From Escherichia coli (GTDB lineage: Bacteria > Pseudomonadota > Gammaproteobacteria > Enterobacterales > Enterobacteriaceae), in NCBI RefSeq assembly GCF_050920415.1, contig NZ_CP169309.1: DNA of 64,000 nt, one strand, 5' to 3'. Position numbers and translations under genes: made by a program. The notes beneath the pieces were generated by a model, which saw only the letters and a program-made list of their open reading frames with translations, was not told where the DNA came from and searched no databases. Shown in pieces: positions 18,487 through 23,625 of the stretch (positions within the stretch are counted from its first letter, which is position 1; every line of letters starts with the position of its first letter).

Positions 18487-19083
18487 ATGATGCCTGCTGA
18501 ACCTAAAACCTATAAACGCAAATCAACGCAATTTAAGCCGCTCACAGCAATGCAGGAGGCTTATTGCCAGTCATACATCAAAACGCCTGAAAACCAGACT
18601 CAGGCAGCGATTAACGCAGGATTCTCCCCAAACACAGCGGCAGTTAAAGCCAGTGTCATGATGCGCGATGAACGCATTCAGAAACGGATTGCCGAGTTGA
18701 TGGAGGAGCGCAACAAACGAATGCGCGTCAGTGCTGATTACGTTCTCATGCGCCTGGTGGAGATCGACCAGATGGACGTGATCGACATCCTCAACGACGA
18801 TGGGAGCCTTAAACCAATCCGTGAGTGGCCGAAAATCTGGCGCACTACGCTTAGTGGCTTTGATCTGTCGTCGACCATCATGAACATGAACGAGGATTCG
18901 ATAGAGACAATCCTCAAAAAAATTAAATGGCCTGACAAGGTGAAGAACCTTGAGCTGATTGGTAAGCATGTTGATGTCAACGCGTTCAAAGAACGTCTGG
19001 ATGTTAATGTGAATGTGACAATTGCTGATCGCATAGCAGCAGCCAGGAAGCGACTCAAAGAACGTCAGGATGGTAATCAGTGA
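18487..19083 (+). CDS. terminase small subunit
   Basis: 198 aa directly upstream of and overlapping large terminase; HTH-like N-terminus. Confidence 0.6.
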   Translation: MMPAEPKTYKRKSTQFKPLTAMQEAYCQSYIKTPENQTQAAINAGFSPNTAAVKASVMMRDERIQKRIAELMEERNKRMRVSADYVLMRLVEIDQMDVIDILNDDGSLKPIREWPKIWRTTLSGFDLSSTIMNMNEDSIETILKKIKWPDKVKNLELIGKHVDVNAFKERLDVNVNVTIADRIAAARKRLKERQDGNQ

Positions 19084-20555
19084 CAGATACAGCGTTATCT
19101 CCTGAAGAGCAGTTGATCGAGGATATTGCAGGGTTCACTCACGATCCGCTTGGCTATGCCCTCTATGCGTTCCCGTGGGGGGAAGAAGGGACTGAACTGG
19201 CACATGCTACCGGCCCACGTCAGTGGCAGGCTGATGCGTTCCGAGAGATACGTGATCACCTGCAGAATCCAGCGACGCGCTATCAGCCGCTTATGCTGGC
19301 ACGCGCTTCTGGTCACGGTATTGGTAAATCCGCATTCATCTCAATGCTGATCAACTGGGGCATGTCCACTTGCGAGGATTGTAAGGTCGTGGTGACCGCC
19401 AACACCGACAACCAGCTACGAACGAAGACCTGGCCGGAAATTATCAAGTGGTCGAACCTTGCTATCACGAAAGACTGGTTTACCTGTACCGCTACCGCGA
19501 TGTACAGCAATGATCCTGGGCACGACAAGCGGTGGCGAGCTGACGCAATCCCCTGGTCTGAGCACAACACTGAGGCATTCGCCGGACTACACAACGAGCG
19601 CAAACGCATCATCGTGGTATTCGATGAAGCGTCGAACATTGCGGATCTGGTGTGGGAAGTTGCTGAGGGTGCGCTTACGGACGAAGACACTGAGATTATC
19701 TGGGTGGCGTTCGGAAACCCTACACGTAACACCGGGCGTTTCCGCGAATGTTTCCGCAAATATAAACACCGCTGGAAAACTGCGCAGATTGACAGCCGGA
19801 CGGTGGAAGGCACTAACAAACAGCAGTTGCAGAAATGGGTTGATGACTACGGGGAAGACAGCGACTTCGTTAAAATCCGTGTGCGCGGCATATTCCCGGA
19901 TGCATCTGAATTGCAGTTTATCCCTACCGGACTTACTGACGAGGCAATGAAACGGGTGGTAACCGCTGCGCAGGTTGCACATGCTCCGGTGATAATCGGC
20001 GTTGACCCGGCATACTCCGGCGTTGATGACGCTGTGATATACCTGCGGCAGGGGCTGCATAGTAAGGTGCTGTGGACCGGCAACAAGACCACTGATGATC
20101 TGATTATGGCGAAGCGTATCGCTGACTTTGAAGACCAGTATCAGGCTGACGCGGTGTTCATCGACTTCGGTTACGGTACCGGGCTGAAGTCAATCGGTGA
20201 CGGTTGGGGGCGCACATGGCAACTTGTTCCGTTCGGTGGCGCGTCTACTGACCCGCAGATGCTCAACAAGCGTGGGGAGATGTTCAACTCATGCAAGACA
20301 TGGCTGAGGCTGGGCGGCATGCTGGATGACCAGGAAACAGCGGACGACCTGTCGGCGGCAGAGTACAAAGTTCGAGTGGACGGTAAAATCGTTATCGAAC
20401 CGAAGGAAGATATCAAGGAGCGGCTTGGGCGTTCGCCGGGTAAAGGCGATGCGCTACTGCTGACGTTTGCGTTCCCTGTGTCTAAGCGTCTGCGAATTCC
20501 CGGGCAGCAGAACCAGCAAGGCAAGGCCATTACAGATTACGATCCCTATGCTTAA
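19080..20555 (+). CDS. terminase large subunit
   Basis: 491 aa; ATPase then nuclease domain arrangement, position after terS. Confidence 0.8.
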   Translation: MTDTALSPEEQLIEDIAGFTHDPLGYALYAFPWGEEGTELAHATGPRQWQADAFREIRDHLQNPATRYQPLMLARASGHGIGKSAFISMLINWGMSTCEDCKVVVTANTDNQLRTKTWPEIIKWSNLAITKDWFTCTATAMYSNDPGHDKRWRADAIPWSEHNTEAFAGLHNERKRIIVVFDEASNIADLVWEVAEGALTDEDTEIIWVAFGNPTRNTGRFRECFRKYKHRWKTAQIDSRTVEGTNKQQLQKWVDDYGEDSDFVKIRVRGIFPDASELQFIPTGLTDEAMKRVVTAAQVAHAPVIIGVDPAYSGVDDAVIYLRQGLHSKVLWTGNKTTDDLIMAKRIADFEDQYQADAVFIDFGYGTGLKSIGDGWGRTWQLVPFGGASTDPQMLNKRGEMFNSCKTWLRLGGMLDDQETADDLSAAEYKVRVDGKIVIEPKEDIKERLGRSPGKGDALLLTFAFPVSKRLRIPGQQNQQGKAITDYDPYA

Positions 20556-20605
20556 TCCGTTAGCGGGGATAATGACGGAGATATCCTCTGGTGAGGATAA
20601 AACAA

Positions 20606-20629
20606 AGCCAGCTCATCGGCTGGCTGTTT
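20606..20629 (+). terminator. terminator after terminase
   Basis: agccagc-tcatcg-gctggct hairpin, short T-run. Confidence 0.5.
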
Positions 20630-20641
20630 GTGACATGTCAC
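20629..20641. repeat. palindrome TGTGACATGTCAC, copy 2
   Basis: Perfect 13-bp palindrome abutting terminator. Confidence 0.6.
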
Positions 20642-20645
20642 GGTG

Positions 20646-21017
20646 TTATTGCTCGCTTAACTTCTGCTTCAGCAAGTAACCTTCAAGCATCCAGATTTTG
20701 TTTACAGCATTCTGCCGGGCAATCTTCCGACCAATTTCCGCATCAAAGTTTTCCGGGCTTGCACAGGCGCTCTCTCCGGTGACGGTGAAGCCATTGCGCA
20801 GCACCAGAACGCAGAACGTCAGCAGAGAAAGTGATTCGTGCGGCTGGTAGTTTACCTCTCCGCCAGTATGTTTCGCTTTTATGGCTACGCCAAAGATACC
20901 ATCTTCTGCTGTGAAATATGCCTCCTGAGCAATAATACTCTCGATATGGTCTGGCGTAACGCGCGGCGCGGCTAAACCTTTAGCCTGAATTTCAGATTCA
21001 ATGTCTTTGTCACTCAT
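20646..21017 (-). CDS. hypothetical protein (opposite-strand moron between terminase and tRNA)
   Basis: 123 aa MSDKDIESEIQAKGLAAPRVTPDHI...; family not recognised. Confidence 0.5.
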   Translation of the reverse strand: MSDKDIESEIQAKGLAAPRVTPDHIESIIAQEAYFTAEDGIFGVAIKAKHTGGEVNYQPHESLSLLTFCVLVLRNGFTVTGESACASPENFDAEIGRKIARQNAVNKIWMLEGYLLKQKLSEQ

Positions 21018-21032
21018 AGTCTAATCTCACCT

Positions 21033-21060
21033 TAAAAAAATGCCCGGCGAACCGGGCGAA
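21033..21060 (-). terminator. terminator for tRNA transcript
   Basis: minus-strand cgcccgg-ttcg-ccgggc hairpin then TTTTTTT. Confidence 0.55.
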
Positions 21061-21220
21061 CTGGAAGCAATGAGTTATGCCTTCCGTGGCTGTACTGGTT
21101 TACAGCATGAAGCCATCGCAATGGCGTCCTGCTGTAAAAAGGGCGGTGATAGTCCTTCAAGGGAAACCATCACCGCCAAGCCCCTGGAACTTCTGGCATC
21201 ACGGTCCTTAGGCGTGATTC

Positions 21221-21297
21221 TGGCGTGGCATGCAGGATTCGAACCTGCGACCGACCGCTTAGAAGGCGGTTGCTCTGTCCAACTGAGCTAATGCCAC
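21221..21297 (-). tRNA. tRNA-Arg (anticodon UCU)
   Basis: Minus-strand cloverleaf: acceptor GTGGCAT/ATGCCAC, anticodon loop CUUCUAA, T-arm GGTTCGAATCC, 3' CCA. Confidence 0.85.
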
Positions 21298-21619
21298 AAC
21301 GCTGAGAGCACTTAGCCTGTTAAGGCGCCACACTTTGTCGCGGCTCCATAAATGCTCTCATCGTTGCACCCTCGTCTCTTCCGAGGCGTCACACCGAATC
21401 GCCGGGATGGTGAATCCCCGTGCGCGGAATAAAACCGCTCGACTTGCACATTCCGGCTACCTGGTTCGTTTGCCCGAGCAAGGGAGGGTGCCCATTAAAC
21501 GTATCCAGACCGCTATCGGCGCATGTGCCATACGCCGTACTGCTCAAAATAAAATCTCACTCCACCTGTTCAATTTAACGACAAGCCAGTCAGGTTAATA
21601 ACAGGAATGCACTCTCTGC

Positions 21620-21634
21620 TTACCTGAAAGGTAA
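21620..21634. promoter_or_regulatory. operator-like palindrome TTACC TGAAA GGTAA ahead of virion operon
   Basis: ~90 bp upstream of ORF 21725. Confidence 0.5.
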
Positions 21635-21724
21635 TAATTCGTGCGTTAAATGTCAACTGTCTACGATAAATAAATCATATGTGGTTAAATTGGTAATAAT
21701 TTAATTGCGTACGGAGTCATTGAT

Positions 21725-21931
21725 ATGTGCATGGGTAGCTCACCATCAGTGCCTGCAACACCAGAAGTTCAGGCAGCACCACAGGAGCAGGATGCCGCCG
21801 TTGTTGATGCCCGCGACGAAGAAACACGTCGCCGTCGCGCTGCTGCTGGTCGTAGTTCTACGCTGCTTACCGGTTCTCAGGGTGACACATCAACCGCTAA
21901 TACCAGCGGTAAAACGCTGCTTGGTCAGTAA
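21725..21931 (+). CDS. small protein preceding portal
   Basis: 68 aa; GGAG RBS with same ccggagtcattga leader as portal. Confidence 0.4.
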   Translation: MCMGSSPSVPATPEVQAAPQEQDAAVVDARDEETRRRRAAAGRSSTLLTGSQGDTSTANTSGKTLLGQ

Positions 21932-21945
21932 CCGGAGTCATTGAA

Positions 21946-23625
21946 ATGGCGGAAACAACTAAAGAGCGATTGAACAAACAGTTCGCACAACTTGAAAGCG
22001 AGCGTCAGTCGTTCGAGCCGCACTGGCGCGAGTTGAGTGATTACATCAACCCGCGTGGTTCCCGCTTTCTGACTTCTGAGGTCAACCGTAACGATCGACG
22101 CAATACACGCATTATTGATTCGACCGGGACTATGGCGGCGCGCACTCTCGCCAGCGGCATGATGTCAGGCATCACAAGCCCCGCGCGTCCGTGGTTTCGC
22201 CTGGCTACGCCAGATCCTGAAATGATGGATTATGGCCCTGTTAAGTTGTGGCTTGAGGCGGTGCAGAACCGCATGAACGATATGTTCAATAAGTCGAATC
22301 TCTATCAGTCGCTGCCGCAGTTATACGGAAGCCTCGGCACATACAGCACTGGTGCAATGGCGGTACTGGAGGATGACGATGACATCATTCGCACAATGCC
22401 ATTCCCGATAGGCAGTTACTACCTGGCTAACTCACCTCGTGGCAGTGTGGACACCTGTTTTCGCAAGTTCTCTATGACTGTTCGTCAGCTTGTTCAGGAG
22501 TTCGGGCTAAATAACGTCAGCGAATCCGTAAAAAGCATGTGGGAAAGCGGCACCTACGAGAAGTGGATTGAAGTGATGCATTCGGTTTACCCGAACATTG
22601 ACCGCGATACATCGAAGCTGGATAGCAAGAACAAGCCATTCAAATCGGTTTATTACGAGGTTGGCGGTGATAACGACAAGTTGTTGCGTGAGTCAGGATT
22701 CGATGAGTTTCCAATTATGGCTCCGCGCTGGGAAGTTAACGGCGAAGATGTTTATGGATCATCATGCCCGGGTATGCTGGCGCTTGGACCTGTTAAGGCA
22801 TTGCAGCTTCTCCAGAAGCGCAAGTCGCAGTTGATTGATAAAGCCACCAATCCGCCGATGATTGCTCCGACTTCCCTCAAGAATCAGCGCGCCTCCCTTC
22901 TTCCTGGCGACATCACGTATATCGATCAGATTACTGGTCAGGATGGTTTCAGGCCTGCTTATCTGGTTAACCCCAGTACAGCAGATCTGGTGGCAGACAT
23001 TCAGGACACTCGTCAAATCATTAACAGTGCCTACTTTGTCGATCTGTTCATGATGTTGCAGAACATCAATACCCGTTCGATGCCTGTTGAAGCGGTGATC
23101 GAAATGAAAGAAGAAAAACTTCTGATGTTGGGGCCGGTTCTGGAGCGTCTGAACGACGAATGTCTTAATCCTCTCATTGACCGCGCTTTCTCGATGATGG
23201 TGCGTAAAAACATGCTGCCGCCCCCGCCTGACGCGATGGAAGGTATGCCCCTGAAGGTCGAATACATTTCCGTCATGGCTCAGGCGCAGAAGTCTATCGG
23301 CCTGTCCAGTCTGGCGTCTACGGTCAACTTCATTGGTCAACTTGCGCAAGCGAAACCAGAAGCTCTCGACAAACTCAACGTTGATCAGGCAATCGATGCA
23401 TTCGCTGATATGTCCGGAGTGTCTCCAACCGTCATTGTTCCGCAGGAACAGGTTGAGCAGGCTCGCCAGCAACGGGCACAGCAACAACAGCAGCAACAAA
23501 TGATGGAGATGGGGATGGCGGCGGCACAGGGTGCCAAGACGCTAAGCGAAGCTAAAACTTCGGATCCGAGTGTTTTGTCAGCTATGGCGAATGCAGTTAG
23601 TGGTCAGGGTGGGCAATCACAATGA
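21946..23625 (+). CDS. portal (head-to-tail connector), T7 gp8-like
   Basis: 559 aa; C-terminal QQQ...MEMGMAAAQG tail resembles T7 gp8. Confidence 0.75.
   Translation: MAETTKERLNKQFAQLESERQSFEPHWRELSDYINPRGSRFLTSEVNRNDRRNTRIIDSTGTMAARTLASGMMSGITSPARPWFRLATPDPEMMDYGPVKLWLEAVQNRMNDMFNKSNLYQSLPQLYGSLGTYSTGAMAVLEDDDDIIRTMPFPIGSYYLANSPRGSVDTCFRKFSMTVRQLVQEFGLNNVSESVKSMWESGTYEKWIEVMHSVYPNIDRDTSKLDSKNKPFKSVYYEVGGDNDKLLRESGFDEFPIMAPRWEVNGEDVYGSSCPGMLALGPVKALQLLQKRKSQLIDKATNPPMIAPTSLKNQRASLLPGDITYIDQITGQDGFRPAYLVNPSTADLVADIQDTRQIINSAYFVDLFMMLQNINTRSMPVEAVIEMKEEKLLMLGPVLERLNDECLNPLIDRAFSMMVRKNMLPPPPDAMEGMPLKVEYISVMAQAQKSIGLSSLASTVNFIGQLAQAKPEALDKLNVDQAIDAFADMSGVSPTVIVPQEQVEQARQQRAQQQQQQQMMEMGMAAAQGAKTLSEAKTSDPSVLSAMANAVSGQGGQSQ

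Follow-up and report, generated by a model that had tools for sequence, protein, structure and literature searches.

Among the described RNAs closest to the element reported here is put of the lambdoid phages HK022 and HK639, which promotes processive antitermination in cis. It is about 70 nucleotides (nt) long with two stems, is encoded right behind the early-left promoter in phages of this group that lack N, has no evident phage protein partner, and is followed by terminators and then by the early genes. It occurs in two copies (putL and putR), with HK639 annotated with putL only. Other RNAs are tied to the processing of transfer RNA (tRNA). The c4 RNA of phage P1 and the CI RNA of P4 (Rfam family C4), each about 77 nt, are cut from a longer early or immunity transcript, with ribonuclease P (RNase P) as the expected enzyme; they are themselves tRNA-like substrates, and act by antisense pairing. 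At the eukaryotic MALAT1/mascRNA locus, a tRNA-like structure directly 3′ of a structured RNA lets RNase P set the 3′ end beside a protective structure. The tRNA cluster of phage T4 yields stable RNAs of unknown function (species 1 and 2), which are co-transcribed with the tRNAs and freed by tRNA-processing enzymes, and to our knowledge such RNAs have not been described at the early promoters of temperate phages. Phage tRNAs often lie in the leaders of heavily transcribed operons. Here, a 64,000 nt stretch of Escherichia coli DNA (contig NZ_CP169309.1, hereafter the window) is found to carry a large, structured RNA element in a prophage, upstream of a phage tRNA-Arg gene and on the same strand.

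The region 21663–20600 is one leftward, mostly non-coding early transcription unit of a prophage related to phages phiV10 and epsilon15 (Uetakevirus). The order of the unit is the same across its carriers: promoter, core RNA, long hairpin (P6), tRNA or tRNA-like module, conserved terminators, genes. That these parts constitute an RNA family, encoded on the minus strand of the window and with this anatomy, is very probable. The tRNA-Arg itself is ordinary and was already known; the RNA that flanks it is a new family, of a kind (promoter-proximal phage leader, or tRNA-linked processed RNA) that has precedents. The core has the following features in the window.

21366–21539, minus strand: core of the RNA family, 174 nt, pseudoknotted (covariance model R1)
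21537–21517, minus strand: helix P1, loop GGCAC, consensus CGGCRUAU/AUGYGCCG
21513–21506 with 21463–21456, minus strand: helix P2, closing a variable hairpin, consensus GC..UCYG/CRGG..GC
21461–21443, minus strand: invariant strand GGUAGCCGGAAUGUGCAAG (alignment)
21438–21424, minus strand: helix P3, a variable hairpin
21419–21404, minus strand: helix P4, 4 base pairs, loop UUCACCA
21412–21409 with 21395–21392, minus strand: pseudoknot of CACC, from the P4 loop, with GGUG
21386–21370, minus strand: helix P5, CCUCG/CGAGG, loop GAAGAGA

The core alignment and the pair counts are based on the cores of 58 distinct relatives, which range from 151 to 180 nt in length. Standard pairs make up 98.5% of the 1796 pair cells, compared with 25–44% when the partners are slid by 1–3 columns, and changes on both sides of a pair were seen at 13 pairs (124 cells). 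None of 500 shuffles reached any of the pairing measures. G·U pairs are frequent (U15·G25 in 56 of 58 sequences, U52·G112 in 57 of 58), and reading the complementary strand would turn them into A·C; this places the RNA on the minus strand, which is also that of the tRNA. One C-G pair of the P4-loop pseudoknot becomes A-U in a lambdoid subgroup. A candidate second pseudoknot, formed by GCAC of the P1 loop and GUGC of the invariant strand, never varies and so can be neither supported nor refuted by covariation. Model R1 found a sole match in the window (138 bits, E = 3e-42) and one copy per locus at 57 other loci. The invariant 19 nt strand and the compensatory changes show selection on the fold that spans phages of Escherichia, Salmonella, Klebsiella, Enterobacter and Stenotrophomonas. 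At several loci (L009, L034, L041, L042, L045 and L117) the interval between P5 and P6 holds an extra conserved module, GCCAUUCACGCUAAGCAUC...GGUGCUUAGCGGGACUGGAAGAGUUACCACUUGGAGACGGUCC....

A preliminary description of this locus, made by inspection of the DNA, had proposed that the region 5′ of the tRNA is structured, with a long-range pairing of gcaccctc with gagggtgc, and that covariation across relatives should be looked for. The region is indeed structured (fold z-score −2.8, on either strand) and the relatives share a conserved fold of P1–P5, the pseudoknots and P6, but the pairing that was named is not conserved. Its two strings lie at 21366–21373 and 21484–21491, each one base away from where they had been placed; one is the 3′ strand of P5, which is paired locally with covariation, and the other falls in a variable hairpin that the relatives lack.

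Between the core and the 3′ part of the unit lie a long hairpin and the tRNA.

21298–21366, minus strand: long hairpin P6, CAACGAUGAGAGC...GCUCUCAGCGUU(G) around a 44 nt tip, minimum free energy −36 kcal/mol
21221–21297, minus strand: tRNA-Arg, anticodon UCU (reads AGA), CCA encoded, in the tRNA slot of the unit (ARAGORN)

The 3′ strand of P6 stops at the 5′ end of the tRNA, and the last P6 pair uses G+1 of the tRNA. The general form of P6 is CAAC-GAUGAGAGC... ...GCUCUCAGC-GUUG around a hypervariable tip of 11–134 nt, and its strands covary among 58 variants, with GAUGAGAGC/GCUCUCAGC replaced by CAAAAGAGC/GCUCUUUUUG, AGGUAAGAGCA/UGCUCUUUCC or AUGAGAGCGCAC/GUGCGCUCCCAG. The tip in the window is 92–94% identical to those of mEp460, cdtI and Stx2c phages. 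A role of the tip as a guide RNA was considered and rejected, as it matched only other copies of the element and otherwise gave chance 18 nt hits.

The minus-strand tRNA-Arg(UCU) had been recognised in the preliminary description. It was recovered by ARAGORN as the single tRNA of the window, and by the Rfam tRNA model (RF00005; 72.2 bits, E = 4e-15, gathering score 29), which covers the tRNA only and not its flanks. The comparison of AGA usage suggested there gave 5.2 per 1000 codons in the prophage and 1.2 in the right flank. At 29 of 122 distinct loci the element has a tRNA-Arg(UCU) behind it in the same orientation, leaving 76% without a true tRNA. Most other full-length units carry a tRNA-like module in this slot. 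Its acceptor stem is GUGGUGA/UCACCAC, followed by a hairpin like a D arm (GCGCAGGCUGAUGCGC, with covarying forms such as GACGGGGCUGACCGUC), then by 40–150 nt of unrelated, variable sequence in place of the anticodon arm, and by a hairpin resembling a T arm, which reads GCCGG-AGAUCAGCA-CCGGC or has the canonical form GCCGG-UUCGAUU-CCGGC; some modules also have ACCA. Examples are the modules of mEp460 (L002, 2860–3003, minus strand), L046, L031 and L091, which are 96–190 nt long; none of these four gave an ARAGORN or Rfam call.

The junction between P6 and the slot, GUU|GUGG, is invariant, with U at −1 and G at +1. A true tRNA, or a module with an acceptor stem and T-like arm, was found in 70 of 113 distinct contexts, and to judge from their sequences these have what RNase P needs in a substrate. 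Degenerate modules that keep their acceptor and T-arm features suggest selection for RNase P cutting, and the modules may themselves amount to a separate class of RNase P 'handles'. Because they keep a minimal RNase P substrate, cleavage by this enzyme is predicted to set the 3′ end of the core plus P6.

The element is widespread. By BLAST, phage phiV10 and the O157 typing phages 9 and 10 match the query interval at 98.7% identity, and a search with 21290–21640 returned phiV10-like phages and, at about 80% identity, unannotated intergenic DNA of unrelated phages. The carriers include lambdoid phages (mEp460, cdtI, 2H10, Ayreon, many Shiga toxin (Stx) 2c-converting and some Stx2a-converting phages), P1-like phages (P1, P7, D6, SJ46 and RCS47), phages of Klebsiella, Enterobacter and Salmonella, and one Stenotrophomonas phage. 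Exact searches with the invariant 19-mer found at least 120 viral contigs and, among species-representative genomes, 24 loci, nearly all in Enterobacterales. About a third of complete E. coli genomes (1839 of 5426) carry the element, on chromosomes and on P1-like plasmids, and in 40 of the 40 records listed from this set no RefSeq feature lies under it. Searches of Rfam 15 at E ≤ 1, using 19500–23000 of the window and seven relatives, gave no match to the core, P6 or tRNA-like module; at permissive thresholds only the tRNA and unrelated families (C4, isrK, int-alpA) appeared. Searches of the literature available to us returned nothing on this element, although an earlier passing mention may exist. 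Two metagenome bins labelled Bacillota and Lachnospiraceae (L140 and L154) hold the exact 19-mer on short contigs, which are probably mis-binned fragments of enterobacterial phages. Both the breadth of the family and the finding that the hairpins 3′ of the tRNA are conserved terminators of the same unit as the core RNA go beyond what had been described for this locus.

Transcription of the unit is predicted to start shortly upstream of the core.

21620–21663, minus strand: predicted sigma-70-like promoter of the leftward unit (promoter scan)
21540–21619, minus strand: 5′ leader of about 80 nt with two hairpins (fold)

Two promoters can be drawn here: a −35 of TTGACA (21656–21651) with a 17 nt spacer and a −10 of TACCTT (21633–21628), or TAGACA and AATTAT separated by 18 nt (21663–21634). 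The arrangement TTGAC(A/C)-17-TACC(T/C)T is kept in all phiV10/epsilon15-like relatives. Helix P1 begins about 90 nt 3′ of the −10 in the window, and the core about 80 nt after the promoter. A palindrome, TTACCTttcAGGTAA (21634–21620), overlaps the −10, and a half-site, ATTATTACC, recurs within 21620–21700; these are likely to be repressor operators within a divergent control region shared with the gp3/portal operon. The record of epsilon15 has a repressor site annotated at the homologous place. The leader is a degenerate version of a P6-like stem cassette that is intact 5′ of the core in Klebsiella and Enterobacter relatives, reading AAC-AUGAAAGCGCAC...GUGCGCUUCCAG-GUGUG around a variable insert at L008 and L006, and such a leader stem was marked as an RNase III site by the annotator of epsilon15.

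Among 101 distinct loci, 31 have a sigma-70-like promoter on the sense strand no more than 140 nt upstream of the element, compared with 3 on the antisense strand and 7 of 101 control regions. The distances from the −10 to helix P1 cluster at 6–8, about 54 and about 96 nt, with the shortest class present in several lineages; in lambdoid relatives helix P1 starts 6–55 nt after the −10. At 52 loci, a cI-type S24 repressor gene, in the orientation of the element, is its nearest upstream neighbour. The order in lambdoid phages is the cI-type repressor gene, a terminator, oL-like operators repeating those at oR, the promoter and then the element, which is therefore the first thing to be transcribed from pL and occupies the place of nutL and N in lambda, or of putL in HK022. 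In mEp460, the cI, Cro and CII genes were identified, and no antiterminator was found among the first five early-left open reading frames (ORFs). Two terminator-like hairpins, seen by eye, lie between the unit of mEp460 and its first early-left ORF; both were missed by the terminator scan and by the strict terminator finder. Elsewhere in this genome (L002, 5351–5539, plus strand), matches to Rfam isrK-like and C4 antisense RNAs lie in or next to the Rha antirepressor region, suggesting that this lambdoid phage has an immunity module of the P1 c4/ant type.

Other contexts differ. In phage P1 it belongs to the ban operon, under C1 control, where trnI ends 15 nt before it and ban follows; two further tRNAs and a dicF-like region are part of this operon as well. 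The dicF-like region is annotated (L004, 5300–5401 and 5316–5338, minus strand) with a strong terminator, and is upstream of trnA/trnT, tciABC, trnI and the element, so ban expression must already pass a terminator. In phage SopranoGao the element follows the lysis genes. No partner gene is shared by its neighbours across these contexts, and the element moves as a block among unrelated phages and genome positions. The preliminary description had left a choice between a co-transcribed small RNA, a processing substrate and a packaging-related structure. The first two fit the evidence: the element is on the tRNA strand with a promoter upstream, and ends at the 5′ end of the tRNA with U(−1) and G(+1). 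A packaging role is not supported, because the element sits elsewhere in lambdoid phages (after pL), in P1 (at trnI/ban) and in SopranoGao, and its position between the terminase and portal genes here is incidental.

The 3′ part of the unit and its neighbours are as follows.

21198–21218, minus strand: trailer hairpin, AUCACGCC...GACCGUGAU (fold)
21133–21177, minus strand: intrinsic terminator T1, GGCGGUGAUGG...CUAUCACCGCC then CUUUUUAC, 14 pairs (terminator scan)
21099–21138, minus strand: hairpin UUACAGCAGGACGCCAUUGCGAUGGCUUCAUGCUGUAA between T1 and T2 (fold), conserved in L008 and in epsilon15 (L136)
21033–21057, minus strand: intrinsic terminator T2, GCCCGGUUCGCCGGGC then AUUUUUUU (terminator scan)
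20646–21017, minus strand: variable cargo gene, 123 amino acids (aa), Phage_gp49_66 (PF13876; Pfam E = 3e-35), PHROG 322, of unknown function
20598–20625, minus strand: terminator T3, which ends the leftward unit, faces the end of the terminase large-subunit gene and is annotated in phiV10 (terminator scan)
19080–20555, plus strand: terminase large-subunit gene, left neighbour of the unit (ORF list)
21946–23625, plus strand: portal gene, right neighbour of the unit (ORF list)

Stable stem-loops ending in a terminator had been noticed 3′ of the tRNA, and this is confirmed, with the trailer hairpin, T1, the 21138–21099 hairpin and T2 found there. Of the pair given as tacagcatg and catgctgta, the hairpin does fold (at 21138–21099), while the second arm reads cctgctgta and matches at 8 of 9 positions. 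The trailer hairpin is conserved after both tRNAs and tRNA-like modules, with compensatory changes (CACGCCUCAGGACCGUG, CACGUAGCCAGCGUG and CACGUUAGGACCGUG in relatives). The T1 hairpin, GGCGGTGAT...ATCACCGCC, spans 21177–21142 and is followed by CTTTTTAC; the form UUGGCGGU...ACCGCC-CUUUUUAC is kept in Klebsiella, Salmonella and lambdoid relatives, and thus in both phiV10-like and lambdoid contexts. The T2 hairpin (GCCCGG...CCGGGC, 21057–21042, then T7, or AU7) ends only 16–24 nt from the next start codon, leaving no room for a promoter. In the 600 nt downstream of elements, the strict terminator finder gave 0.74 sites on the sense strand compared with 0.20 on the antisense strand.

The layout of T2 before a gene recurs in Klebsiella phage ST512-KPC3phi13.3 (L008) with a different gene, the cargo slot there holding a DUF2829 gene (1635–2156, minus strand). 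Among phiV10-like phages the block 21027–21729 is conserved and the gene 3′ of the terminators changes, so that this position looks like a swap site for accessory genes. On the other side of the promoter, 21725–21931 (plus strand) encodes a 68 aa protein (PHROG 831) like gp3 of epsilon15, which starts MCMGSS, is rich in Ala, Pro and Gln, and is conserved upstream of the portal gene.

The element resembles put in its place just after the early-left promoter of N-less lambdoid phages, in the lack of an evident phage protein partner, and in being followed by terminators and then early genes. Stem I of put and helix P1 both read ACGGCG...CAUGCG(U/C)CG, and the invariant CAUG of the element corresponds to U28 of put, which lies in a pocket of the β′ zinc-binding domain of RNA polymerase; both likenesses are leads only. 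The element is nevertheless not a member of the put family. Its 174 nt core and P6 together comprise five or six helices, a pseudoknot and a candidate second one; the element occurs once per phage, is tied to a tRNA or tRNA-like module, and is also found outside lambdoid early operons (P1, phiV10-like phages, SopranoGao). Model R1 gave no match to HK022 or HK639 at E ≤ 10, nhmmer gave none, and the best local alignment to put (Smith-Waterman) was no better than those of shuffles.

The likeness to the c4 and CI RNAs lies in being a phage regulatory RNA that would be cut from a longer early transcript, probably by RNase P, and C4-type RNAs and the element are both found in P1-like and lambdoid phages. 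Unlike them, the element relies on a separate tRNA or tRNA-like substrate, and the RNA released would be a large, pseudoknotted fold. The Rfam C4 model has no match on the element, its matches in mEp460 lying elsewhere. Neither MALAT1 nor the T4 RNAs are related to the element in sequence, and its own cleavage is a prediction. Like lambda nut, and boxA of rrn leaders, the element lies in a leader, after pL in lambdoid carriers. The 3′ strand of P6 is often UGCUCUUU, which is boxA-like (reference GCUCUUUA, which as a single strand serves NusB/NusE), and the 7 nt P5 loop GAAGAGA recalls the 5 nt loop GAAGA of boxB, the hairpin that N binds. In P6 this string is paired within a helix that covaries, and changes to UGCGCUU or GUCAUCUU are compensated. 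A boxB-like hairpin, GCGCAGGCUGAUGCGC, is always adjacent to the element, at one copy per locus, with none in the rightward operon. A nut site was considered and rejected, since the boxB-like hairpin belongs to the tRNA-like module, the boxA-like string forms part of a covarying stem, and no N gene was found among the first five early-left ORFs of mEp460.

What the RNA does can be proposed only tentatively. The reading that we favour, while giving it somewhat less than an even chance, is that RNase P frees the core plus P6 as an early RNA, which acts upon RNA polymerase and so suppresses termination in the manner of put. RNase P would cut at GUU|GUGG, maturing the tRNA where one is present and producing the 3′ end of a core plus P6 RNA of about 240–320 nt, sealed by P6. 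The core would fold on leaving RNA polymerase, bind the elongating enzyme and make it resistant to termination, and transcription from the early promoter would then pass the terminators of the unit to reach the downstream genes. The logic would be that of the put RNA of HK022, using a different and much larger RNA. The put RNA stays active when it is not tethered to the complex by the nascent transcript (PMC9378689), and so release by RNase P need be no obstacle.

This reading is favoured because the RNA is made right after an early, probably repressor-controlled promoter, because the lambdoid carriers have no N, because conserved terminators lie between the RNA and genes without a promoter of their own, and because the unit and its terminators travel together, which is a classic antiterminator-plus-terminator design. 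The variation of the cargo genes next to a conserved RNA block is also counted in its favour. Several observations weigh against it. No significant similarity to put was found by covariance model, nhmmer or local alignment, and there is one copy per phage with none in the rightward operon. Read-through in phiV10-like phages would run antisense into the terminase genes. In P1 the element lies 2.4 kb into the ban operon, and the interval from there to ban has no predicted terminator. With a more permissive terminator finder the sense strand was not enriched; that finder was discarded as non-discriminating. The processing signals and sealed 3′ hairpin fit free, stable RNAs and are not needed by a cis-acting site. 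Finally, epsilon15 (L136, 2638–2723, minus strand) keeps only helix P1 and the start of P2; everything from there through P6 and the tRNA-Arg into the middle of T1, whose 5′ half is lost, has been deleted, while T2 before the gene is kept, and the unit is therefore dispensable in that phage.

Some of these points favour a second explanation, the main rival, which is somewhat less probable than the first: that the element is a free, stable, trans-acting early RNA without any role in termination, a non-coding 'moron' made up of promoter, RNA, tRNA-like processing signal and terminator. RNase P, possibly with RNase III at the P6-like stems, would free the core plus P6, and the RNA would bind or block a conserved host machine or a defence sensor. 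The modules retain the acceptor and T-arm and have the anticodon region replaced, as selection for RNase P cutting alone would leave them, and in Klebsiella and Enterobacter relatives P6-like stems are present on both sides of the core. The unit has its own conserved terminator, a sealed 3′ hairpin and a built-in processing handle; it is mobile among unrelated phages and positions, is dispensable in epsilon15, and in P1 shares its operon with tRNAs and a dicF-like RNA. Its invariant strands and pseudoknots are of the grade seen in riboswitches and ribozymes. Such an RNA would, on the other hand, leave unexplained how early-left genes behind T1 and T2 come to be expressed in lambdoid carriers without N, and neither a co-occurring partner gene nor, for the variable P6 tip, complementary targets were found.

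Conservation of this aptamer-like type, with invariant junctions and stems of variable length, together with the leader position and the terminators downstream, would also suit a leader that senses a ligand or factor (a riboswitch or attenuator) and so decides whether transcription stops at T1/T2. This is improbable. The terminators are 190–320 nt past the core, with P6 and the tRNA between, and thus no overlapping expression platform is visible; a U-tract after P5 is absent in most members, and the downstream genes share no function. Its features thus do not fit those of a riboswitch, the downstream genes being unrelated and no terminator/anti-terminator being visible next to the core.

Still less probable is that the flanks have no function of their own, being just the leader and trailer that belong to a phage tRNA gene, or what decay has left of a former tRNA array. 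The element does adjoin tRNAs in phiV10-like and P1 phages, and some P6 tips and downstream modules hold T-arm-like pieces. Most loci have no true tRNA, however, the core has no cloverleaf and no ARAGORN or Rfam tRNA call, and the invariant 19 nt strand and cross-genus compensatory changes show that purifying selection maintains a specific fold. The presence of a small protein-coding gene, for example the 87 aa ORF at 21335–21598 (plus strand) or the hypothetical proteins that some GenBank records, including those of mEp460 and phiV10, annotate across the element, is refuted by core lengths in all three modulo-3 classes (26, 18 and 14 sequences), by the lack of any frame open in all members, by variability without three-base periodicity, by single-base indels within conserved blocks, and by the G·U-rich covarying helices, which argue for RNA, so that the earlier judgement that the ORFs here are not protein-like is upheld.

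Taken more broadly, it is fairly probable that the core plus P6 represents a new class of phage 'host-takeover' RNA: a fold of riboswitch or ribozyme grade, made first from early promoters, freed by RNase P at a tRNA-like handle, and acting on a conserved host machine, either on RNA polymerase as an antiterminator unrelated to put, or in trans on some other target, for example a defence sensor or RNase. The element has gone unannotated in P1, lambdoid and Stx-converting phages, which are among the best-studied genetic systems, and in many of these phages it lies in the regulatory heart of the genome, directly after the repressor gene and early-left promoter. If RNA polymerase is what it modifies, it would be a second, structurally unrelated solution to antitermination by RNA alone, would explain how early genes are switched on in N-less lambdoid phages (Stx2c and some Stx2a), and would bear on the induction of toxin phages. 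If it acts in trans, it would be a new kind of early phage effector RNA. In either case the tRNA-like handle would parallel mascRNA-type 3′-end formation in bacteria, and would explain why tRNA-Arg(UCU) is so frequent at this spot.

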